Assembly: GCA_934119965.1 (NCBI GenBank)
Contig: CAKOTA010000001.1
Location: 64,129-128,128 of the forward strand
Origin: an uncultured Bacilli bacterium
GTDB taxonomy: Bacteria > Bacillota_I > Bacilli_A > RF39 > UBA660
Direction: 5' to 3'
Length of the DNA stretch: 64,000 nt
Both the position numbers and the translations under genes were made by a program. Of this stretch, positions 21,675 to 55,872 are shown one piece after another. The notes beneath the pieces are model-generated. The model searched no databases. It was not told the origin of the DNA and was given only the letters and a program-made list of their open reading frames with translations. How positions within the stretch are numbered: the stretch's first letter is position 1; every line of letters starts with the position of its first letter.

Positions 21675-21759
21675 TGGTGCGAGTGAAGGGACTTGAACCC
21701 CCATGTCGTAAGACACTAGATCCTAAGTCTAGCGCGTCTGCCAATTTCGCCACACTCGC
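21675..21759 (-). tRNA. tRNA-Leu (anticodon UAG)
   Basis: Reverse complement folds as a cloverleaf. Acceptor is GCGAGTG/CACTCGC plus ACCA. Anticodon arm is CTAGA-CTTAGGA-TCTAG. Has a long variable arm and a GTTCAAGTC T-loop. Confidence 0.9.
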
Positions 21760-21769
21760 AAATAAAAAA

Positions 21770-21846
21770 TGGTGGACCCTATAGGACTCGAACCTATGAC
21801 CGCACGGTTATGAGCCGCGTGCTCTAACCAACTGAGCTAAGGGTCC
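21770..21846 (-). tRNA. tRNA with CAU anticodon (elongator Met or lysidine-modified Ile2; not distinguishable here)
   Basis: Acceptor is GGACCCT/AGGGTCC plus ACCA. Anticodon loop is CTCATAA. T arm is ATAGG-TTCGAGT-CCTAT. 77 nt. Confidence 0.9.
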
Positions 21847-42615: not shown

Positions 42616-43122
42616 ATGGATTTAAGAGACATAAAAGAGTTTTTAAAAGATGTATCAAAATATATTATTATAGCTTTGATTGTATTTTTAATAGTTGTTT
42701 ATGTTGTTTCTTTTGAACAAGTAATCGGTCCCTCAATGGAACCAACTTTGAAAGAAGAAAACATTATAGTTGTTGATAAATTAAGTTATAAATTTCGAAA
42801 AATTAAAAGGAATGAAATAATTATATTCAAATATGATGAAAAATATTTAATAAAGAGAGTAATTGGTCTACCAGGCGAAACAATTGAATATAAAAATAAT
42901 ATACTATATATAGATAATGAGGCTTACGAAGAAACTTTTTTGTCAAATGTTACTACTGAAGACTATAATACTGGTCTAATTCCTAAAAACAAATATTTTG
43001 TATTAGGAGATAATCGTGAAAACTCTTTAGATGGAAATGATTTTGGTTTAATCGATGAGAAAGATATTATTGGTAAAGCTTGGTTTATAGTATGGCCGTT
43101 AGGTAAATTTAAAGGTATATAA
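42616..43122 (+). CDS. lepB: Signal peptidase I (bacterial P-type, Ser-Lys)
   Basis: GPSMEPT (Ser), KRVIGLPGE (Lys) and GDNRENSLD motifs. Confidence 0.9.
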   Translation: MDLRDIKEFLKDVSKYIIIALIVFLIVVYVVSFEQVIGPSMEPTLKEENIIVVDKLSYKFRKIKRNEIIIFKYDEKYLIKRVIGLPGETIEYKNNILYIDNEAYEETFLSNVTTEDYNTGLIPKNKYFVLGDNRENSLDGNDFGLIDEKDIIGKAWFIVWPLGKFKGI

Positions 43123-43133
43123 AAGGGGGAATT

Positions 43134-43406
43134 ATGAAAAATACCAACAAAAAAAGTAAACTAATATTTAATATAATATTTTGGATTGTAATAATTGTTT
43201 TAGCATTTATTTGGATTACCGATTATACAAGAACAAAAGACAATAAAGAACCTAAATTTTGTTTGTCAAAACAAACTCATAAATTTGATGATGGAAAAGT
43301 AACTGAATGTATTGGATTAGGATATAAAATCTATAAATATGATAGAAGCACAATAACAAAAGGAATTGAATTTGGACCATTTTTTATGCAAATGCGTGAT
43401 AACTAA
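43134..43406 (+). CDS. Small N-terminally anchored membrane protein
   Basis: RBS AAGGGGGA. One TM (LIFNIIFWIVIIVLAFIWI). 90 aa. Confidence 0.5.
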   Translation: MKNTNKKSKLIFNIIFWIVIIVLAFIWITDYTRTKDNKEPKFCLSKQTHKFDDGKVTECIGLGYKIYKYDRSTITKGIEFGPFFMQMRDN

Positions 43407-43463: not shown

Positions 43464-46010
43464 ATGGATAAGAAAAAATTATTTGCAATCGTTCTTTTCT
43501 TTTTAATGGGATTTTTTATGTTTACCAATGCTAATCCATCAGATGGTACCAAAAAAATCAAAGAAGAACAAATAGATGATACAAGTAGCACAAAAGAAGA
43601 ATTAATAAATGATACTAAACAAAATACAGAACCAATTATAACTTTAAATGGTGGTAACATCGTCATTCGTCAATCTAATTTTAATTATGAGGAGTTAGGA
43701 GCAACTGCAATCGATAAAGAAGACGGAAACATTTCTGATAAAATTGTCATAACAGGAAAAGTAGAAAATAAAAAAGGAATATATAATATTAATTATGATG
43801 TTACCGATAGTGAAGGATTAAAAGCAAAAACAGTAACTAGAGAAGTAGAGGTAGTTGATATAAAAGATTTAGAAGAAGCTATTAATAATGGTAAAAAAAA
43901 TATAAATGAAACAACTAAAAAAGAAATTAGCAAAGAACTAAAAAACTTATTAGAAAAATTGAATGAAGCTATTAAAGATGGAGAAAAAATAATCGAAAAT
44001 AAAAATTCAAAACAAACAACAATTGATGAAAAAGAAAAAGAAATAAAGAAAATACTTGAACAAATTAATAATTTAACATTTGAGGTTAGTTTTTATATTG
44101 ATGATGAATTAGTCACTAAAACAACTGTAAAATATAATGAATCAGTATCTGATGATTTTATTAACTTAATTTCAACATCTAAAGATGGTTATACTTTTTC
44201 CGGATGGAATGGTAACTATAAAAATGTAATGAAAAATGAAAAAATTAAAGGAACAAAAACTTTAATTAACTATGAATTAACTTATATTTTAGATAACAAA
44301 ATAGTTAGTAAAACTAAATTTAATGCTGAAAACAATATTAATTTAGCTAAATATGATAAAAAGGGTTATAATTGTTCATCTTGGTATGAAAATGATACTG
44401 AAATATTAACAACGAATAAAATTTACAGAAATATAACAGTATCAGCAACTTGTGAAGCTACTAATACTGATTATAAAGTTATAGTAAAAAAACAAAATAT
44501 AAATAATGATGATTATACATCTAATGAATATATATTAAAAGGCATAACAGACAGTAAAATTGATATTGAATCACTAAAATCAACTTATTTAGATGAAGGA
44601 TTCACATATTTTAATCATACAAAAAATAGTGAATTTGTATCAGCAACTAATCAAACTATAATTACATTGATTTATAATCGTAATTTATATGATTTATCTT
44701 ATAAAAATGGCAATGAAATTATTGGGTCTACAAAATATAAATATGGTACTGAAATTAATTTAACAAAAACTGTTTCTAAAAATGGATATACTTTTACTGG
44801 ATGGAATTTAAACAATGAAATTGTTACAAAAGTTACTATGAACACTAATATAGAATTAAAAGCAACATTTGATATAATAGAATACAATATCACTTATATA
44901 AATGATGGTAATCAAGTAGAAAATAAAACTACTTATACAATTGAAGACCAATTTGATTTTATTAGTCCAACAAAAGATGGCTATAATTTTATAGGTTGGT
45001 ATTATGACAATATAAAAGTTGATGGTATAAGTTTAGGAAGTGTTGGTGATTTAACCCTAACTGCTGTTTACGAAATTCAAAAATTCAATGTATCTTTCTA
45101 TAACGAAAATGAACTTATTAATAATCAAAAAATAGAATATGGTAAATCAGCTATAGCACCTATAAATCCAACAAAGGAAAATTATACTTTTATTGGTTGG
45201 GATAAAGAATTTTCAAATGTCAAAAGTGATTTAAATATCTATGCATTATATAAAGCAAATCAAATTGGAATTCAAGTTTCGTTAAAACCTAATGCCCAAT
45301 TACAATTTAAAAAGAATAGTAATGTTGATCTCAAAGATTATATTGATGTATATAAGGTGTATGCTGATAACACTAAAGAATTAACAACTGACTATACAAC
45401 TAATTTATCAACTAACAAAGTTGTTGATCATAAAAAATTAATAATTACTCAAGATAAATTTACAAATGATGAATTAGAATATAGTGTTATTAATGAAGAT
45501 GCATACCAAACAAAATTTGAAATAAATTATAAACAAAACGGATATCGTGAAACTTGGAATGGATTATGTATTTCTAATTGTAGTTCAAACTTTAATACAA
45601 GTTTTGTAAAAACAGATTATTCATTATTAGAAATAATTGAACATTATGATGAATTTATCGAAATTAGTAGTGTTACTGCCTATTATGGCAATGAAAAAAA
45701 AGACTTAGCTATTAGTGATTCCGTTAGATGGACCCATCTAGGTTCAAGAAAGGGAATACTGAATGTAGTCTATAATCCAGTTTATATAGCAACCCTTGAA
45801 GAAACATATACAGAAGAAGTTTGTAAACCTTTTAGAGGTTGTCAAAATGCTCAAAAAATAAAAAAAGTAGATGTTATGGATGATAACAAAATAATTACAA
45901 AACTAGAAATTAAATATAATCGAAAATTTAGTAATGGAACTAAAAACTATGTTGTTGTATTTTCTCTATCTAATGGAATATTTACAGCTATAGATGAATA
46001 TGAAATATAA
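43464..46010 (+). CDS. Secreted surface protein with an Ig-like (DUF5011-type) domain, a coiled-coil and several Listeria-Bacteroides (InlB B-type) repeats
   Basis: Signal peptide present. PIITLNGGN...GATAIDKEDGNISDKIVITG...YNINYDVTDSEGL fits the Ig-like pattern. Recurrent GYTFSGWNG, GYTFTGWNL, GYNFIGWYY and NYTFIGWDK units fit the repeats. Confidence 0.7.
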   Translation: MDKKKLFAIVLFFLMGFFMFTNANPSDGTKKIKEEQIDDTSSTKEELINDTKQNTEPIITLNGGNIVIRQSNFNYEELGATAIDKEDGNISDKIVITGKVENKKGIYNINYDVTDSEGLKAKTVTREVEVVDIKDLEEAINNGKKNINETTKKEISKELKNLLEKLNEAIKDGEKIIENKNSKQTTIDEKEKEIKKILEQINNLTFEVSFYIDDELVTKTTVKYNESVSDDFINLISTSKDGYTFSGWNGNYKNVMKNEKIKGTKTLINYELTYILDNKIVSKTKFNAENNINLAKYDKKGYNCSSWYENDTEILTTNKIYRNITVSATCEATNTDYKVIVKKQNINNDDYTSNEYILKGITDSKIDIESLKSTYLDEGFTYFNHTKNSEFVSATNQTIITLIYNRNLYDLSYKNGNEIIGSTKYKYGTEINLTKTVSKNGYTFTGWNLNNEIVTKVTMNTNIELKATFDIIEYNITYINDGNQVENKTTYTIEDQFDFISPTKDGYNFIGWYYDNIKVDGISLGSVGDLTLTAVYEIQKFNVSFYNENELINNQKIEYGKSAIAPINPTKENYTFIGWDKEFSNVKSDLNIYALYKANQIGIQVSLKPNAQLQFKKNSNVDLKDYIDVYKVYADNTKELTTDYTTNLSTNKVVDHKKLIITQDKFTNDELEYSVINEDAYQTKFEINYKQNGYRETWNGLCISNCSSNFNTSFVKTDYSLLEIIEHYDEFIEISSVTAYYGNEKKDLAISDSVRWTHLGSRKGILNVVYNPVYIATLEETYTEEVCKPFRGCQNAQKIKKVDVMDDNKIITKLEIKYNRKFSNGTKNYVVVFSLSNGIFTAIDEYEI

Positions 46011-49065: not shown

Positions 49066-49812
49066 ATGGAAACAATTAATATCCGTTATTTAGACTATAA
49101 TCATAATGCCATTTGTAGTTCTGAGGCAATGTTATATAATTCTTCGCTTGGTCTTTTTAAACGTTTTAATATAAATACTCCAATGCATATAAAAGAAAAT
49201 AAAAAAAGAAAACTATTAGAACTAGAAAAAATTACTATATTGAAACAATATTATAACGAAATAATTTGTTTAGTAAACAATTATACTGATGAATATTTAG
49301 CAGGATATGTTATCAAACCAAGTAATGGATATCCGTTAGATGAAACCTTTTTACTTCCAGAAGAAAAAATAAAAATATTAAAAAGATTAAAAGAAATAAT
49401 TTCACTTTTTGAGAAAAATGGAGTTATATATGAAGATATTCATTTTGATAATATTTATTATGATGAAAAAAGTGATAAATTAGAACTCATTGATATTGAT
49501 AATATAGAAATTAATGGTTATAAAAAAGATTTGGAATCATTTTTAACTAGAAAATATTATATGTATGGCGGCAAAAATGCAAAAAACGCTCGAATATTTA
49601 ATTTTAATTTAATTACATATATGTATTTAACAAATAATTTTTCTAGCTATAATATAAGAGATTTAATAAAAAGTTTTAATAAAGATGTAAGTAAAATAAA
49701 AAACAAAAAAATTTGCAAAATTTTTAATAAATTATTAACTGCTGAGATTAATAGTGAATGTGACAATATATATTTAATTGATATGATAGATGAAAAAATA
49801 CTTAGAAAATAG
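49066..49812 (+). CDS. Protein-kinase-like fold protein (APH/CotS/choline-kinase-type catalytic loop)
   Basis: YEDIHFDN (compare hGDlHxxN) followed 12 aa later by LIDIDN (compare the DFG-equivalent iDfD). 248 aa. Confidence 0.45.
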   Translation: METINIRYLDYNHNAICSSEAMLYNSSLGLFKRFNINTPMHIKENKKRKLLELEKITILKQYYNEIICLVNNYTDEYLAGYVIKPSNGYPLDETFLLPEEKIKILKRLKEIISLFEKNGVIYEDIHFDNIYYDEKSDKLELIDIDNIEINGYKKDLESFLTRKYYMYGGKNAKNARIFNFNLITYMYLTNNFSSYNIRDLIKSFNKDVSKIKNKKICKIFNKLLTAEINSECDNIYLIDMIDEKILRK

Positions 49813-50894: not shown

Positions 50895-51692
50895 ATGTAT
50901 AAAAAAATATATATTGAAGTTACAAATAATTGTAATTTGAAATGTGATTTTTGTATAAAAAATACTCGAAAAATTGAATATCTTGAAATAGAAAAATTCA
51001 AAAAAATATTAAATAAAATTAATGGATACACTGATTACTTATATTTTCATATATTAGGTGAACCTTTAATGCATCCTGAAATCAATGAATTAATAAATAT
51101 TGCTTCTCAAAAATTTAAAATAAATATAACTACAAATGGATACTTAATTGATAGAATAAAAAATAATAAAAATATTCGTCAATTAAATATATCATTACAT
51201 AGTTATAATGAAAAATATGGAGTAAGTTTAGATGAATATTTAAATAAAATATTTGAAACTGTAGATGAGTTAAAAAAATATACCTATATATCTTTTAGAT
51301 GTTGGGTAAAAAATAAATATAATGATGAAATATTAAAGAAAATTAATAAAAAATATGGAACTAATTTAACATTTGAAACAATTAAAAATAATACAACAAT
51401 CAGTAATAATATTTTTATTAGTAAAATCAATGAATTTGTTTGGCCAGACTTGAACAATGAAAGAAAAAATAAGTGTGGTAAGTGCTACGCACTAAAAGAT
51501 CATATTGGAATTTTAGTTGATGGAACAATAGTTCCTTGTTGTCTAGACACAAAAGGAATAATTAAATTAGGAAATATTTATGACAATGAATTAAATGAAA
51601 TAATCGAATCAAATAGATATAAAAATATGTTATTAGGGTTTAAAAAAAATCAAAAGATAGAAGAATTGTGCCAAAAATGTAATTTTCTATAA
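50895..51692 (+). CDS. Short radical SAM protein with C-terminal SPASM/twitch-like Cys cluster
   Basis: CNLKCDFC (CX3CX2C) at residues 13-20. C-terminal CGKC ... VPCC ... CQKC. 265 aa. Confidence 0.8.
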   Translation: MYKKIYIEVTNNCNLKCDFCIKNTRKIEYLEIEKFKKILNKINGYTDYLYFHILGEPLMHPEINELINIASQKFKINITTNGYLIDRIKNNKNIRQLNISLHSYNEKYGVSLDEYLNKIFETVDELKKYTYISFRCWVKNKYNDEILKKINKKYGTNLTFETIKNNTTISNNIFISKINEFVWPDLNNERKNKCGKCYALKDHIGILVDGTIVPCCLDTKGIIKLGNIYDNELNEIIESNRYKNMLLGFKKNQKIEELCQKCNFL

Positions 51693-51710: not shown

Positions 51711-51739
51711 TTGATTTTTAGCGCTTGCTATGTTATTAT
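51711..51739 (+). promoter_or_regulatory. Sigma-A type promoter for the secreted-protein/SipW cassette
   Basis: TTGATT, 17-nt spacer, TGtTATTAT. RBS GGGAGGG lies before the ATG at 51769. Confidence 0.6.
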
Positions 51740-51768
51740 TTATATAGAAAATATGGGAGGGTATATAA

Positions 51769-52302
51769 ATGAGAAAAGATACAAATAAAAATTCAGTGAT
51801 TATTTCTTGCTTAGTTGTTGCTATAATAGCAATGTCAGTTGGATATGCCGCTTTAGCAGAACAATTAACAATTAATGGTACTGCTGGAACTGGAAATGCA
51901 AGTTGGGCAATTGCTTTTCAAAGTATAACAAAAAATGCATCATTATCAACTGATGGTGTAAATGAAGTTTCTGAACCTACTGCAAGTGGAACAAGTGCTA
52001 CATTCAATGTAACTTTTGATAAACCAGGAACTAAAATAGTTTATGATGTTGTTGTTAAAAATGGTGGAACAATCGATGCTATTTATGAAGGAATGTCTGG
52101 AGTAGATGAAGCAAATGAAGCAGCTCCAACTGAAATTCAATACAAAGTTGAAAAAACAGATTCAGATGTTGATTTATTACACAATGAAACAGATACATAT
52201 AGAATTACAATTGAATGGCCTTCAAGTTCAACAACTGTAAATAAAACAACTACTAGTAAACAAGCAACTATTCATTTTGATTATGCTCAAAAAACTGAAT
52301 AA
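51769..52302 (+). CDS. Secreted beta-rich protein with TasA/camelysin-style (SipW-type) signal peptide
   Basis: N-terminal K-rich plus hydrophobic span ending VGYAALAEQLTINGT. The FNVTFDKPGTKIVYDVVVKNGGTIDA segment resembles TasA LKPGDK...ENNGSL. 177 aa. Confidence 0.5.
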   Translation: MRKDTNKNSVIISCLVVAIIAMSVGYAALAEQLTINGTAGTGNASWAIAFQSITKNASLSTDGVNEVSEPTASGTSATFNVTFDKPGTKIVYDVVVKNGGTIDAIYEGMSGVDEANEAAPTEIQYKVEKTDSDVDLLHNETDTYRITIEWPSSSTTVNKTTTSKQATIHFDYAQKTE

Positions 52303-52328
52303 TTTGTTTACTTAAAACAGGTGATGTT

Positions 52329-53198
52329 ATGAAAAAGAATAAGGAAAATGGTAATATAGTCATATTAATTATAATATATTTTATATGTTTTATATTTATC
52401 AGTACCACTTATTCTTTTTTTAGTGAACAATTAGAATTAAATGGTACAGTTGGATTTTCTACCAATCAAGATAAACAATATGAAGAAGATCATTTACTTC
52501 AAAATAGTTGGCAACAAGGTAACTATTATTATTATCAATATAATTTAAATGTAAAATATACAGGAAATAATATTATAAGTAGTTGGGCAATAAATATTGA
52601 TGTACCATTAAGTACTGAAGTTACAGGATGTTACAATGCAAATGAATGTATTATAAATGATACTACAATGAGAATTAAAAATGCATCATGGAATGGTAAT
52701 ATGACAAATAATACAATTGTGTCACCAAGTTTTATAATTAAAACAACAGATAATAACTATCAGTTAAAAATTCTATCAGTTAATTTTTATACGGATGATG
52801 ATATTATAGATACAGATGAACCTATTAACCCAGATGAAAATGAGCCAACTGTATCAGGAATTACTGCTAGTTTAAAAACTAACAATTATTGGGGAAACAT
52901 TACTCAATTTGAACTGGAAATTAAAAATGAATCAGATGTAACATTATCTAGTTGGGAACTTAGATATCAAATTCCAACTGGAACTAAAGTAACAAATATT
53001 TGGGGCGGAAATTATATAATTAAAGATAATATATTAATATTAACTGGTATAGAGTGGAGTAAAAGTATACCTGCAGGAAGTATTAATAGTAATGTGGGAT
53101 TTCAAGTTGAAACAACATCTCAAGCACCAACAATGCTTAATTTAATTTCATTTAAAGGAACAAACTCTAATCAGGAAAATGTGGAGATAAAAATATGA
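52329..53198 (+). CDS. Secreted protein with SipW-type signal peptide and two CBM2-like beta-sandwich modules
   Basis: Signal peptide ends TTYSFFSEQLELNGT. The C-terminal module YWGNITQFELEIKNESDVTLSSWELRYQIPTGTKVTNIWGG...WSKSIPAGSINSNVGFQ tracks the CBM2 consensus (W.GF.a.V.V.N...W.l.f..p.G..v...W......WNG.i.aG....FGF). The N-terminal module repeats the pattern (SWQQGNYY...SSWAINIDVP...KNASWNGNM). Confidence 0.55.
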   Translation: MKKNKENGNIVILIIIYFICFIFISTTYSFFSEQLELNGTVGFSTNQDKQYEEDHLLQNSWQQGNYYYYQYNLNVKYTGNNIISSWAINIDVPLSTEVTGCYNANECIINDTTMRIKNASWNGNMTNNTIVSPSFIIKTTDNNYQLKILSVNFYTDDDIIDTDEPINPDENEPTVSGITASLKTNNYWGNITQFELEIKNESDVTLSSWELRYQIPTGTKVTNIWGGNYIIKDNILILTGIEWSKSIPAGSINSNVGFQVETTSQAPTMLNLISFKGTNSNQENVEIKI

Positions 53199-54352
53199 AA
53201 AAGATAGATAGTAGAAATTTAATTATATATATATTGATAATTATCAATTTACTTTTCATTAATTTGATTGGATATAAATATTTTAATAGCCTCACAAATA
53301 ACATTATTAATCCTTTATTTTGGATAGGCATAATGCTATTAAGTCTATATATTTTTAAAAACGATAAACAAAGAATTTCATCAAAAATAAACAAAGAACA
53401 AACAATATTTATAACTATATTAATATATCTAATGATATATTTTGTTCAAGGATTATTTTTTGGATATACAAAAAGTCCATATAATAAAAGTATATATGGA
53501 TTAATTGTAAATATATGGTCATATGTATTTCTTATTATATATCAAGAGTATGTTAGAAATATTCTTAGCAGAAATAGTACTAAAATATTAGTTGTAATCT
53601 TTTTTACTTTAATCGATATAAATTTATATTCATTTTTTAATATAAATGATTCAATATCATTATTTAAACAAATATCTTCAATTTTAATTCCTTCAATAGC
53701 AAGTAATATATTATTAGTATATTTAACTAGTAATTGTGGGTTTATATCTTGCTTACTATATAAGGTTCCAGTCGCTTTAGCAACATTTATATTACCAATA
53801 TTTCCAGATCTCAATTGGTTTTTTATATCAGTTGAACAAACAATATTACCATTTATTACTTATTTAATAATTAAAAATATAGAAGATAAAAGAACAAATA
53901 TTAGAAAAAAGCAATTAAGAAAGAAAAATAAAATTTCAATATTATTAGTGTTTATATTGTTGTTATTTATAGCATTTGTAGCTGGTTTGTTTAAATATAA
54001 ACCTACTTCAATTATGTCGAATAGTATGTATCCAGTTATTAAAAGAGGAGATATAGTTGTTTTAGAAAAAAAATCAATTGAACAATTAAATAATTTAAAT
54101 AAATATGATATAATAAGTTATAGACTTGAGAATATTAATGTTGTTCATAGAATTGTTGCGACTGAAAAACACAACAATGAAATACTATATATAACAAAAG
54201 GTGATAACAATAATATGGCTGATAAAGAAAAAGTCAAACCTAGTCAAATAAATGGAGTAATAAGATTTAAAATACCTAAGTTAGGTTATCCTAGCGTTTG
54301 GTTAAATGAGTTTTTAAATAAAAAACAAACTTTAGTAGAAACAGGAAAGTGA
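53195..54352 (+). CDS. Fusion of a ~245-aa polytopic membrane domain to a SipW-type (archaeal/ER-type, S26B) signal peptidase I
   Basis: ATGA overlap with the upstream gene. About 8 hydrophobic spans are followed by the anchor ISILLVFILLLFIAFVAGLF. Then come SNSMYPVIKRGDIVV, VVHRIV and TKGDNNNMAD, the Ser/His-type peptidase motifs. Confidence 0.7.
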   Translation: MKKIDSRNLIIYILIIINLLFINLIGYKYFNSLTNNIINPLFWIGIMLLSLYIFKNDKQRISSKINKEQTIFITILIYLMIYFVQGLFFGYTKSPYNKSIYGLIVNIWSYVFLIIYQEYVRNILSRNSTKILVVIFFTLIDINLYSFFNINDSISLFKQISSILIPSIASNILLVYLTSNCGFISCLLYKVPVALATFILPIFPDLNWFFISVEQTILPFITYLIIKNIEDKRTNIRKKQLRKKNKISILLVFILLLFIAFVAGLFKYKPTSIMSNSMYPVIKRGDIVVLEKKSIEQLNNLNKYDIISYRLENINVVHRIVATEKHNNEILYITKGDNNNMADKEKVKPSQINGVIRFKIPKLGYPSVWLNEFLNKKQTLVETGK

Positions 54353-54356
54353 TTTG

Positions 54357-55403
54357 ATGGAACAAAGAAGATTAAAATTGATTACAAAAATATTGTTGGT
54401 TTTTATAATAGTATTTTGTTTTACAACTTCAATATTTTTGTTATATTTATACATAGACTATAATAAAAATAAAGATGATAAATTAGTTTATGCATATAAT
54501 ATAAGTCAAAATGTTGACTACTCAGTTAATTTATTTGATAATAGTTTTATTAATGAAAACAATATCAAATCTAATGAAATGTATATATCTGAATTAATTA
54601 AAGATATAAATATTAATTATTATTTTGATTATTCAGCTACTAAAGATGCTAAACTAAAATTTAATTACAAAATAATTGGCACATTGGATGGAACATATCA
54701 AGGAACCAATTCAAATAATGAACAAGGTTCTGTATGGTCAAAAGAATATGTTTTATTAGAAGATGTAAGCAAGGAAATAAATTCTAAAAGTTTTTATATT
54801 AATCAGAATATCATTTTAGATTTTCCAAAGTACAAGGAAGAGGTAGAATCTTTTAAGAAAAAATTCGGAATGTCAGTTTCAACTAAAATGGATATTAAAT
54901 TTATTGTAAATATTAAAGGAAAAATAGATGAAAATGATTTTGACAAAGAAGAAACAATTGATTTAAATTTTCCTTTAGGAGTTCAAGCATTTTCTATATC
55001 TGAAGATTATAAGAAAAATATAAATGATAAGATTGCTACTAAAACAGATGTGAAATTATTTTCTTTCGCAAATATTCCAACAATAATATCGTTATTTGTA
55101 ATTTCTGTTTGTTTATTGATAATTTTTTATAAAAAAATATTTAATTTTAATCAAAAAAATGAATATACAAAAAAATTAGAAAAAATATTAAAGACTTATG
55201 ATGATGTAATTATTGAAATAACGACTCCAGTTAATATTGACGATTATGAAATAATAGAAGTAAAAGGAATTGAAGAAATGGTTGATTTAGAAGAAGAATT
55301 AAGAATTCCAATTAACTTTTATGAACATATACCAAATTATTATGGTGAGTTTACTTTAATTCATAATAATATAGTATATAGATACACATTGGAAGAAAAA
55401 TAA
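54357..55403 (+). CDS. Two-TM protein with large extracellular middle domain (DUF5305-like topology)
   Basis: RBS AGGAAAGTGA. TM near residue 10-35 and again at IPTIISLFVISVCLLIIFY, with an ~85-aa cytoplasmic tail. My recollection that DUF5305 proteins neighbour SipW-type peptidases is unverified. Confidence 0.4.
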   Translation: MEQRRLKLITKILLVFIIVFCFTTSIFLLYLYIDYNKNKDDKLVYAYNISQNVDYSVNLFDNSFINENNIKSNEMYISELIKDININYYFDYSATKDAKLKFNYKIIGTLDGTYQGTNSNNEQGSVWSKEYVLLEDVSKEINSKSFYINQNIILDFPKYKEEVESFKKKFGMSVSTKMDIKFIVNIKGKIDENDFDKEETIDLNFPLGVQAFSISEDYKKNINDKIATKTDVKLFSFANIPTIISLFVISVCLLIIFYKKIFNFNQKNEYTKKLEKILKTYDDVIIEITTPVNIDDYEIIEVKGIEEMVDLEEELRIPINFYEHIPNYYGEFTLIHNNIVYRYTLEEK

Positions 55404-55419: not shown

Positions 55420-55872
55420 ATGTATCTAAAAGAATTTTTAAAAAAATACGAAGATCCAATCGAGTTATATGTTGATATGGATGGTGTAATTGCTGATTAT
55501 GTTATAGGAAAACCTTGTGATTTTGATAAAAAAAGACCGTTATATACATCAATAAAAAAATTAGAAGAGATTTCTAAAATGGGTAATGTTAATATGAATA
55601 TATTATCAATTACTAGAAAGACTATAGGTCGAACAGAAAAAAATGTATGGCTTGATAAATATGCTCCATTCTTTAAAAAAGAAAATAGAAATATAATATC
55701 TAAAGAAGAAAATCCTAACATTTCATCCGCAAATTTAAAATTAAATTTTTTAAAGAATGTAAATAATGATAAGATTGTTATCTTAATAGATGATGATCCA
55801 ATAATATTAAAAACAATCGAAAAAGAATTAAAAAATGTAGTATTATTGAAGGACACAGTTCTTGTAGATTAA
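55420..55872 (+). CDS. HAD-superfamily 5-prime(3-prime)-deoxyribonucleotidase-like protein
   Basis: LYVDMDGVIADY motif I, K..WLDKY and LIDDD motif. 150 aa. Confidence 0.5.
   Translation: MYLKEFLKKYEDPIELYVDMDGVIADYVIGKPCDFDKKRPLYTSIKKLEEISKMGNVNMNILSITRKTIGRTEKNVWLDKYAPFFKKENRNIISKEENPNISSANLKLNFLKNVNNDKIVILIDDDPIILKTIEKELKNVVLLKDTVLVD

Follow-up and report, generated by a model that had tools for sequence, protein, structure and literature searches.

How should a block of four co-directional genes be read in which two candidate secreted proteins are followed by a signal peptidase of the archaeal/endoplasmic reticulum (ER) type and a two-transmembrane (TM) protein, and is such a block a new kind of secretion cassette or a member of an already described class of fiber-building loci? 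This question is raised by positions 51711–55403 (+ strand) of a stretch of 64,000 nucleotides (nt) from an uncultured Bacilli bacterium (assembly GCA_934119965.1, contig CAKOTA010000001.1; called the window below, meaning the whole stretch analyzed), whose DNA has a guanine-plus-cytosine (GC) content of 24%. An initial annotation, drawn from the letters of the window, had described a self-contained SipW-type cassette with a layout outside the known systems. Our analysis indicates that the block is probably an AbpX-type module of the TasA superfamily that builds an extracellular protein fiber or matrix. The system belongs to a locus class first described in 2025–26 and is not a new kind; particular to it locally are a predicted terminal subunit with tandem CBM2 modules and the lack of anchor or regulator genes nearby.

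The four genes lie on the + strand at 51769–52302 (gene 1, 177 amino acids [aa]), 52329–53198 (gene 2, 289 aa), 53195–54352 (gene 3, 385 aa), and 54354 or 54357 to 55403 (gene 4, 349 aa from a TTG start or 348 aa from an ATG start, the latter being the start in public gene calls). They are separated by 26 nt (genes 1 and 2), a 4-nt ATGA overlap (genes 2 and 3), and 1 nt with the TTG start or 4 nt with the ATG start (genes 3 and 4), so that the common direction, the tight junctions, and the motifs quoted in the initial annotation are all present when the open reading frames (ORFs) of the window are read.

A Predicted Fiber Subunit with Homology to AbpX

AbpX-type loci have been described in archaea, Bacillota, and Chloroflexota, with the AbpX of Pyrodictium abyssi and bacterial examples in Clostridium amylolyticum and Natronincola, and they include a major subunit, AbpX-like minor subunits, and variable predicted tip proteins (bioRxiv 10.64898/2026.01.04.697558, January 2026). 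Family databases say little about gene 1: Pfam gives no match, the NCBIfam match to TasA (NF046066) is weak and below its cutoff (15.5 bits vs. 450), and PF12389 (TasA/camelysin) is weakly matched by 2 of 37 members of the gene 1 family. The relationship emerges from a profile of 51 gene-1-like proteins encoded beside fused peptidases of the gene 3 kind (profile A6, with the window's gene 1 as its first row), which matches the PDB sequences of AbpX over residues 2–149, nearly the whole mature protein (9sj2_C, E = 6.2e-10; 9rhp_A, E = 1.5e-8), and reaches TasA structures at E values of 0.2–0.3. Because of these profile scores we regard the gene 1 family as homologous to AbpX, with TasA a more distant relative.

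The same comparison places the predicted mature N-terminus. Since Trp2 of AbpX aligns with Leu29 of gene 1, cleavage is predicted at VGYA|ALAEQL, giving a signal peptide of aa 1–27 that ends in G-Y-A (51769–51849, +) and meets residue 1 of mature AbpX, followed by a predicted donor strand at aa 28–47 (ALAEQLTINGTAGTGNASWA; 51850–51909, +) that aligns with the W2–I12 donor-strand region of AbpX. Mature gene 1 has an isoelectric point (pI) of 4.45, which is also the family median, and 14.0% Asp plus Glu; this low pI and acidic content agree with the description of AbpX homologues as proteins of pI about 4 and about 15% Asp/Glu with defined donor-strand features (bioRxiv 10.64898/2026.01.04.697558). 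In an AlphaFold2 model (predicted local distance difference test [pLDDT] score 80), residues 24–47 form a low-confidence coil and an all-beta domain begins at residue 48. Foldseek ranks the TasA fiber (8aur_A) first for this model, as a weak match (E = 0.011, template-modeling [TM] score 0.33), and further weak matches are to chaperone-usher pilins, AbpA, and the Sulfolobus thread.

Genes 1 and 2, which the initial annotation had described as sharing a nearly identical signal-peptide junction, do so by profile-profile alignment: when the gene 1 and gene 2 profiles (A1 and A3) are compared with hhalign, residues 1–42 alone align (probability 91%, E = 1e-6). The junctions read VGYA|ALAEQLTINGTA in gene 1 and TTYS|FFSEQLELNGTV in gene 2, and within the 64-kb window this motif is found in the ORFs of these two genes only. 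Tyr28 and Ser29 of gene 2 are invariant among its relatives, and by the motif held in common with gene 1 the second protein would be cleaved at TTYS|FFSEQL. Among 51 relatives of gene 1, the residues before the cut are Gly in 45, Tyr or Phe in 49, and Ala in 44, and conservation continues beyond it (L+6 in 44, I+8 in 43, G+10 in 36, and W+19 in 37), T+11 and A+12 also belonging to the conserved segment; an L..I.GTA motif is conserved in the donor strand. Mature positions 2 and 4 are Leu and Glu in gene 1 and Phe and Glu in gene 2; position 2 is aromatic in 24 of the 51 relatives. Type IV pilin-like processing was considered and rejected, as the hydrophobic stretch lies before the conserved Gly and not after it.

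An ER/Archaeal-Type Signal Peptidase Fused to a Polytopic Membrane Domain

The C-terminal part of gene 3 is clearly an S26B signal peptidase, as the initial annotation had proposed from its motifs. Residues 247–372 pass the TIGR02228 model (archaeal/ER-type signal peptidase I; 83 bits vs. a cutoff of 51.85), and a profile of 54 diverse relatives matches human SEC11A (7p2p_A) at E = 3.6e-23 and SEC11C comparably (E about 4e-23), the SEC11A/C matches of the profile searches spanning E = 7e-14 to 3.6e-23. Matches of the gene 3 profile to the bacterial P-type structures SipA, SpsB, and LepB lie at E values of 0.006–0.16. The SNSM, GD, HR, and GDNN..D motifs of gene 3 are all present and align with SGSM, VHR, and GDNN..D of SEC11A/C, and Ser277, His318-Arg319, Gly336-Asp337, and Asp343 are invariant in the 54 relatives, down to 25–30% identity. 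Catalysis in Sec11 and SipW relies on a Ser-His pair (not Ser-Lys) together with two conserved Asp residues; the corresponding codons here are 54023–54025 (Ser277), 54146–54148 (His318), 54203–54205 (Asp337), and 54221–54223 (Asp343), all on the + strand within a catalytic domain encoded at 53981–54349 (+). The protein fails the equivalog model for Bacillus SipW (NF046067; 62 bits vs. a cutoff of 190).

Gene 3 is best understood as an additional, dedicated enzyme of this SipW class because the window also encodes a conventional P-type signal peptidase I at 42616–43122 (+), just after tsf (TIGR02227, 152 bits), which is presumably the housekeeping enzyme. The P-type gene is followed by a 90-aa ORF (43134–43406) that resembles the peptidase profile weakly (E = 2e-4) and matches nothing in NCBIfam.

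The reported fusion of the peptidase to a large polytopic domain is likewise visible in the AlphaFold2 model of gene 3 (pLDDT 79), in which eight helices (aa 6–232) precede a ninth, anchor helix (aa 238–262) and a beta domain. The N-terminal eight-helix membrane domain (aa 1–232) is encoded at 53195–53890 (+), and the signal-anchor helix, which is also apparent from hydropathy and follows a Lys/Arg-rich cytoplasmic loop, at 53906–53980 (+). Because the charge distribution fits, the model suggests a protein with its N-terminus inside and its catalytic domain outside. Searching with the N-terminal domain retrieved at least 820 clusters (50% identity), nearly all of them 370–400 aa long; a fused peptidase is thus the usual architecture throughout a large family and no oddity of this genome.

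What the eight-helix domain contributes is the main question that the locus raises. G86, N106, E118, R121, Y176, P201, and P204 are conserved in it; no Pfam family was found in the 54 members, no PDB sequence matched, and our literature search retrieved no paper on the function of a multi-helix domain fused to such a peptidase. A Pfam match of gene 3 to AgrB (E = 0.004), seen in 1 of the 54 relatives, was dismissed as noise. SEC11, which the sequence profile recovers, was missed by Foldseek with the full gene 3 model, probably owing to the large share that the membrane domain has in it. Among polytopic proteins, Rce1 alone gave a sizeable Foldseek match (4cad_F; probability 0.97, target TM score 0.56, 261 columns), and E118 and R121 are nearly invariant inside a membrane helix, so that the domain might be imagined as an Rce1/CPBP-fold intramembrane protease that clears or trims the cleaved signal peptide. 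Such an identity is highly unlikely on the evidence at hand: the structural match is weak (E = 0.34), neither Rce1 nor Pfam CPBP is matched by the sequences of the 54 members, and the motifs disagree. CPBP proteases are characterized by the motifs EExxxR, FxxxH, and HxxxN/D, whereas no His is conserved in the eight-helix domain, which thus lacks FxxxH and HxxxN, and E118xxR121, the only conserved element, differs in spacing from EExxxR.

Gene 4 matches DUF5305 (PF17231) over the full profile (positions 1–217; E = 6e-23, 81.9 bits vs. a cutoff of 29). Its description as a two-TM protein is upheld by hydropathy, which delineates TM1 at aa 5–36, an external domain at about aa 37–232, TM2 at aa 233–266, and a cytoplasmic tail at aa 267–349. 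A profile of 32 relatives found no significant match among PDB sequences and none to subunits of the eukaryotic signal peptidase complex (SPC). By analogy with described loci, gene 4 is a putative accessory subunit of the signal peptidase.

A Candidate Terminal Subunit with Two CBM2 Modules

Gene 2 begins with a signal peptide (aa 1–29, ending in T-Y-S) and a donor-strand-like segment (aa 30–45, FFSEQLELNGTVGFST) recognized with hhalign (together 52329–52463, +). These are followed by a CBM2-like module with invariant Cys101 and Cys107 (module 1, aa 46–155; 52464–52793, +), an acidic Pro-rich linker whose length varies among the relatives in alignment A3 (aa 156–178; 52794–52862, +), and a second CBM2 module (module 2, aa 179–289; 52863–53195, +). 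That one substrate is built from two CBM2-like modules was already part of the initial annotation and holds. Module 2 matches Pfam CBM_2 (PF00553; E = 3.2e-19, 69.6 bits vs. a cutoff of 24), and its PDB profile search yields the CBM2 of 3ndy_E (E = 4.8e-13) as well as the CBM2 modules of ChiC and Cex, chitin- and cellulose-binding relatives. Module 1, in whose region Pfam marks a second CBM_2 stretch, is homologous to module 2 by hhalign (probability 97.7%, E = 1.9e-12). Trp209 and Trp225 of gene 2 are invariant, and Trp243 is nearly so.

A profile-profile comparison of gene 2 with gene 1 detected no AbpX-like acceptor body in gene 2. As the strand is present and the acceptor domain undetected, gene 2 would be restricted to one end of a fiber, and we infer that it is the precursor of a terminal (tip, anchor, or nucleator) subunit. 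The same observation bears on the earlier statement that the block contains no TapA-like gene: gene 2 is indeed no TapA homologue, but a strand without a detected acceptor is what a nucleator or terminal subunit in the manner of TapA would have, which leaves that statement doubtful.

Gene 2 could specifically take the TapA role, as a wall-side anchor or nucleator whose CBM2 modules bind the cell's own beta-1,4-linked wall glycan while its strand primes the polymerization of gene 1. Chitin binders are found among the CBM2 relatives (ChiC and chitinases). The peptidoglycan backbone is itself chitin-like. The block also encodes neither of the anchors, LPXTG or SLH, that bacterial AbpX loci often carry (bioRxiv 10.64898/2026.01.04.697558), and a donor strand without a detected acceptor is the arrangement seen in TapA (PMC11821415 and its reference 52). 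This role remains a tentative possibility, less probable than not, since close relatives have genes 1, 3, and 4 at the same site without gene 2, which therefore cannot be essential for assembly, and since adhesin-like modules occur in the corresponding proteins of other loci.

Conservation of the Locus across Relatives

To describe the wider distribution of the block, we draw on a metagenome survey in which 80 loci were found with a closer peptidase alignment (A2) and their genes assigned by hidden Markov models (HMMs) made from the alignments. The surveyed loci comprise 78 nonredundant ones, 62 of them with a fused peptidase, and the denominators given here are subsets of these; since these loci also served to refine the gene 1 HMM, the counts speak to homology inside this sample. 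The related loci are metagenome contigs, two of them labeled human gut. Of the 48 loci with enough flank, 45 have a DUF5305 gene immediately after the fused peptidase. A gene-1-like protein lies upstream in 39/45 loci and either upstream or downstream in 41/45, and the small subunits number one to four paralogues in each locus. A gene 2 of the CBM2 type was found in only 5 of 34 loci. Large proteins (at least 450 aa) with a gene-1-like N-terminus occur in 10/31 loci and carry fn3, Listeria-Bacteroides repeat (Flg_new), Big_2, or CBM2 modules. From these counts, the conserved core therefore consists of one or more subunits, the polytopic peptidase, and the DUF5305 protein, to which the second substrate adds an exchangeable head behind a shared N-terminus. 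Genes 1, 3, and 4 are thus co-conserved, whereas gene 2 varies between lineages.

The closest loci show where the block resides. A genome-collection search with the gene 3 protein returned one locus. In L001 (a gut metagenome-assembled genome) and L002–L005, whose peptidases are 47–50% identical to gene 3, the same four genes occur in the same order in a different neighborhood. In L084–L086, at 65–70% peptidase identity, the block sits at the chromosomal site that it occupies in the window: L084 has the order xseA-xseB-x-spoIVB-radical SAM-gene 1-gene 2-gene 3-gene 4-cdsA-rseP, and L085 and L086 the order radical SAM-gene 1-gene 3-gene 4-cdsA-rseP, without gene 2. Because relatives of 65–70% identity hold it at the same site, the block is not a recent insertion.

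Some irregular loci deserve mention. In L013–L016 (6102–7149), L019, L021, and L036, the DUF5305 or peptidase gene is split into two ORFs, which could reflect frameshifts, assembly errors, or pseudogenes; the split common to L013–L016 may be real in that lineage. L074–L083 encode short (170–240 aa) SipW-like peptidases with no DUF5305 neighbor in this small sample. A 655-aa protein (P0275) that appears to join a gene-2-like CBM2 protein to a polytopic peptidase was rejected as a real fusion; its joint (...AFVRWYMKK...) probably arose because a gene caller working with genetic code 4 translated a TGA stop codon as Trp. The window itself encodes, at 43464–46010 (+), an 848-aa protein with the Listeria-Bacteroides repeat (TIGR02543) and without the junction motif; repeats of this type also occur in the large proteins with a gene-1-like N-terminus that other loci encode.

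Proposed Assembly of the Fiber

We hypothesize that the Sec pathway exports the proteins of genes 1 and 2, whose long signal peptides end in G/T-Y-A/S, and that gene 3, a Ser-His peptidase with an external catalytic domain on a nine-helix membrane body, cuts after the junction, probably in complex with the DUF5305 protein of gene 4. The amphipathic strand freed at the new N-terminus would be ALAEQLTINGTA for gene 1 and FFSEQLELNGTV for gene 2. The acidic beta-sandwich of gene 1 would then polymerize head to tail by donor-strand complementation, with calcium possibly aiding as in AbpX, and gene 2 would cap one end of the fiber and bind a beta-1,4-glycan through its two CBM2 modules. Gene 2 might act as a tip adhesin, if the ligand is dietary or host fiber, or as anchor or nucleator in the TapA role, if it is glycan of the cell's own wall. 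A variable terminal subunit fits the fn3, Flg_new, Big_2, and CBM2 heads that other loci place on the same N-terminus. In its general form, the matrix or fiber idea of the initial annotation holds, with assembly itself a prediction.

Several observations weigh against this fiber reading. The narrow gene 1 profile (A1), built from 51 relatives of a word-based search, is weak, its one PDB match being AbpX at E = 0.23; the gene 1 model gives no Foldseek match at E ≤ 0.001, so its resemblance to known folds is weak as well. Mature position 2 of gene 1 is Leu and not aromatic, and the acidic position 4, used for calcium in AbpX, is kept in just 8 of the 51 relatives; on the latter ground, calcium-dependent assembly in the style of AbpX is doubtful for this clade. 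Moreover, the block lacks an anchor of the LPXTG, SLH, or any other type, close relatives (L085 and L086) do without gene 2, and our literature search turned up no experiment with a bacterial member of this clade.

An alternative view is that genes 1 and 2 encode ordinary secreted or surface-retained proteins, such as a glycan binder and a small beta-sandwich partner, served by a private peptidase, with the N-terminal motif as its recognition site and no fiber at all. Such a view would accommodate the weak structural likeness of gene 1 to fiber subunits, the weak matches of single family members to the generic Ig-like DUF11, CARDB, and HYDIN/VesB, and the usual occurrence of CBM2 modules in soluble or enzyme-linked binders. 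It seems improbable to us, however, as conservation runs about 12 residues past the cut, beyond what a peptidase needs and coinciding with the donor strand of AbpX; the homology to AbpX spans the whole domain; and many loci carry two to four paralogous small subunits, as pilus and fiber loci do. We accordingly retain the AbpX-type fiber or matrix as the probable function of the block.

If this is true, low-GC anaerobes make TasA/AbpX-like strand-exchange fibers capped by glycan-binding modules, which would offer a route for the attachment of cells to plant or host fiber or to other cells. The class is abundant in metagenomes, and the compact locus, with three core genes and a swappable head, is a convenient model for substrate selection by ER-type peptidases and for the roles of DUF5305 and of the membrane domain. 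The finding overturns nothing known.

Transcription Signals and Genomic Neighborhood

A promoter of its own for the block is plausible and had been proposed earlier. At 51711–51739 (+), the sequence contains a TTGATT -35 element, a 17-nt spacer, and an extended -10 element (TG-n-TATTAT), with an A-tract ahead, and the -35 element, the TG-extended -10 element, and the upstream A-tract are all retained in L084, L085, and L086. Against this, sites of this type are no commoner in DNA of 24% GC than in shuffled sequence (50 found vs. 53 expected), so that the site stands as quoted and conserved in three relatives, with no enrichment behind it. Shine-Dalgarno-like sequences precede all four genes, that of gene 1 being GGGAGGG at 51755–51761 (+). 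A terminator scan found none downstream of gene 4, and the next gene begins 16 nt on; the cassette is therefore at most putatively self-contained. Rfam detected no riboswitch or other RNA near the block, its sole matches in the window being two adjacent transfer RNA genes at 21678–21846 (-).

The block is bracketed by spoIVB and cdsA, as had been stated, but it is adjacent to neither, each lying one gene further out. Directly upstream is a radical SAM/SPASM gene (50895–51692, +, 265 aa), which is kept there in L084–L086. As a component of the system it was rejected, for it accompanies the block only in this close lineage and in 0 of the 80 metagenome loci with fused peptidases; because it is absent from all of these, it is probably unrelated to the cassette. 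Further upstream, between xseB and spoIVB, 49066–49812 (+) encodes a 248-aa protein with faint kinase-like matches (Pkinase, E = 0.035; NleH-type effector kinase, E = 3e-4), and L084 has a 249-aa gene without Pfam matches at the equivalent place. Directly downstream of the block lies an NT5C-like gene (55420–55872, +, 150 aa; 5'-nucleotidase family, weak match), with cdsA 12 nt beyond it and rseP accompanying cdsA. The NT5C-like gene is missing at the corresponding position in L084, L085, and L086, and because of this absence it is taken as a small lineage-specific insertion.

Comparison with Known Systems

The Bacillus subtilis tapA-sipW-tasA operon resembles the block in encoding a dedicated ER-type signal peptidase together with two substrates, of which one polymerizes and the other gives a strand only. 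The TasA junction, GTWA|AFND, resembles VGYA|ALAE of gene 1. In contrast, SipW is about 190 aa long and has no eight-helix domain, whereas gene 3 has 385 aa; the Bacillus system has no DUF5305 gene and a different gene order, gene 2 is not a TapA homologue, and gene 1 is nearer to AbpX than to TasA.

Among other Bacillota, the sipW-bsaABCRSD operon of Clostridium perfringens is similar in having a small matrix protein and accessory secreted paralogues, and experiments showed its dedicated SipW to be needed for secretion and polymerization of the matrix protein (PMC7395162). It differs in its own two-component regulation and in the resistance of BsaA polymers to sodium dodecyl sulfate, and the text retrieved on it mentions no DUF5305 gene or polytopic peptidase (PMC7395162). 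The haloarchaeal Tat-fimbriae (Tafi) system (TafA/E pilins, TafD, and TafG) likewise places a peptidase and a DUF5305 protein beside strand-donating pilins and has variable tips; TafG, the DUF5305 protein, has been proposed to assist the signal peptidase TafD, and TafG–TafD fusions have been noted (PMC11821415, PMC12337348). Unlike the block described here, Tafi is archaeal, its subunits use the Tat pathway, and TafD, with its four TM segments, has an extra domain of another kind.

A more distant parallel is the eukaryotic SPC (SEC11A/C with SPC22/23, SPC25, and SPC12; 7P2P and 7P2Q). SEC11A/C are the proteins that the catalytic domain of gene 3 resembles most, and in both cases the catalytic subunit has extra membrane and beta-sandwich parts; in gene 3, unlike in the SPC, enzyme and additional membrane part form one protein, and DUF5305 has no detectable sequence relation to SPC subunits. 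Following the analogy, which is a structural speculation taken from the AbpX preprint (bioRxiv 10.64898/2026.01.04.697558), the eight-helix domain and DUF5305 might together be a bacterial counterpart of the SPC, in which the membrane module is more than a passive anchor and either reads the conserved G-[YF]-A junction and the long hydrophobic region of these substrates or acts as an Rce1-like second protease that disposes of the signal peptide, and in this way gates fiber assembly at the membrane; we hold this proposal to be rather unlikely.

The closest relatives are the AbpX-type loci, whose dedicated signal peptidase I has ten TM helices and is accompanied by a DUF5305 "accessory" protein, with A0A1M6GRN4 as an example of a bacterial peptidase of this kind (bioRxiv 10.64898/2026.01.04.697558). 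The initial annotation had instead placed the layout outside the known systems, and the block could on that account be a new kind of SipW-type cassette, distinct from all those described, that processes and anchors a matrix plus glycan-binding layer. Its layout is indeed unlike that of tapA-sipW-tasA, no TapA homologue was found, gene 3 falls below the SipW equivalog cutoff, and the retrieved literature makes no mention of a tandem-CBM2 substrate. A new kind is nonetheless unlikely: the same architecture is found in AbpX loci (bioRxiv 10.64898/2026.01.04.697558), the pairing of DUF5305 and peptidase recurs in Tafi (PMC11821415, PMC12337348), the gene 1 family is homologous to AbpX, and the fused peptidase is spread over at least 820 clusters. 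The AbpX-type assignment leaves some differences, for nine helices were counted in gene 3 where the preprint gives ten, the predicted terminal subunit here has two CBM2 modules, no LPXTG/SLH anchor, two-component system, or cyclic di-GMP genes lie near the block in the window, mature position 2 of gene 1 is Leu and the acidity of position 4 is not conserved in the clade, and the host is a bacterium of 24% GC. With the AbpX loci the block nevertheless shares a small acidic, AbpX-homologous major subunit, extra subunits that combine a common N-terminus with differing bodies, and a dedicated multi-TM, TIGR02228-type signal peptidase I together with a DUF5305 accessory gene.

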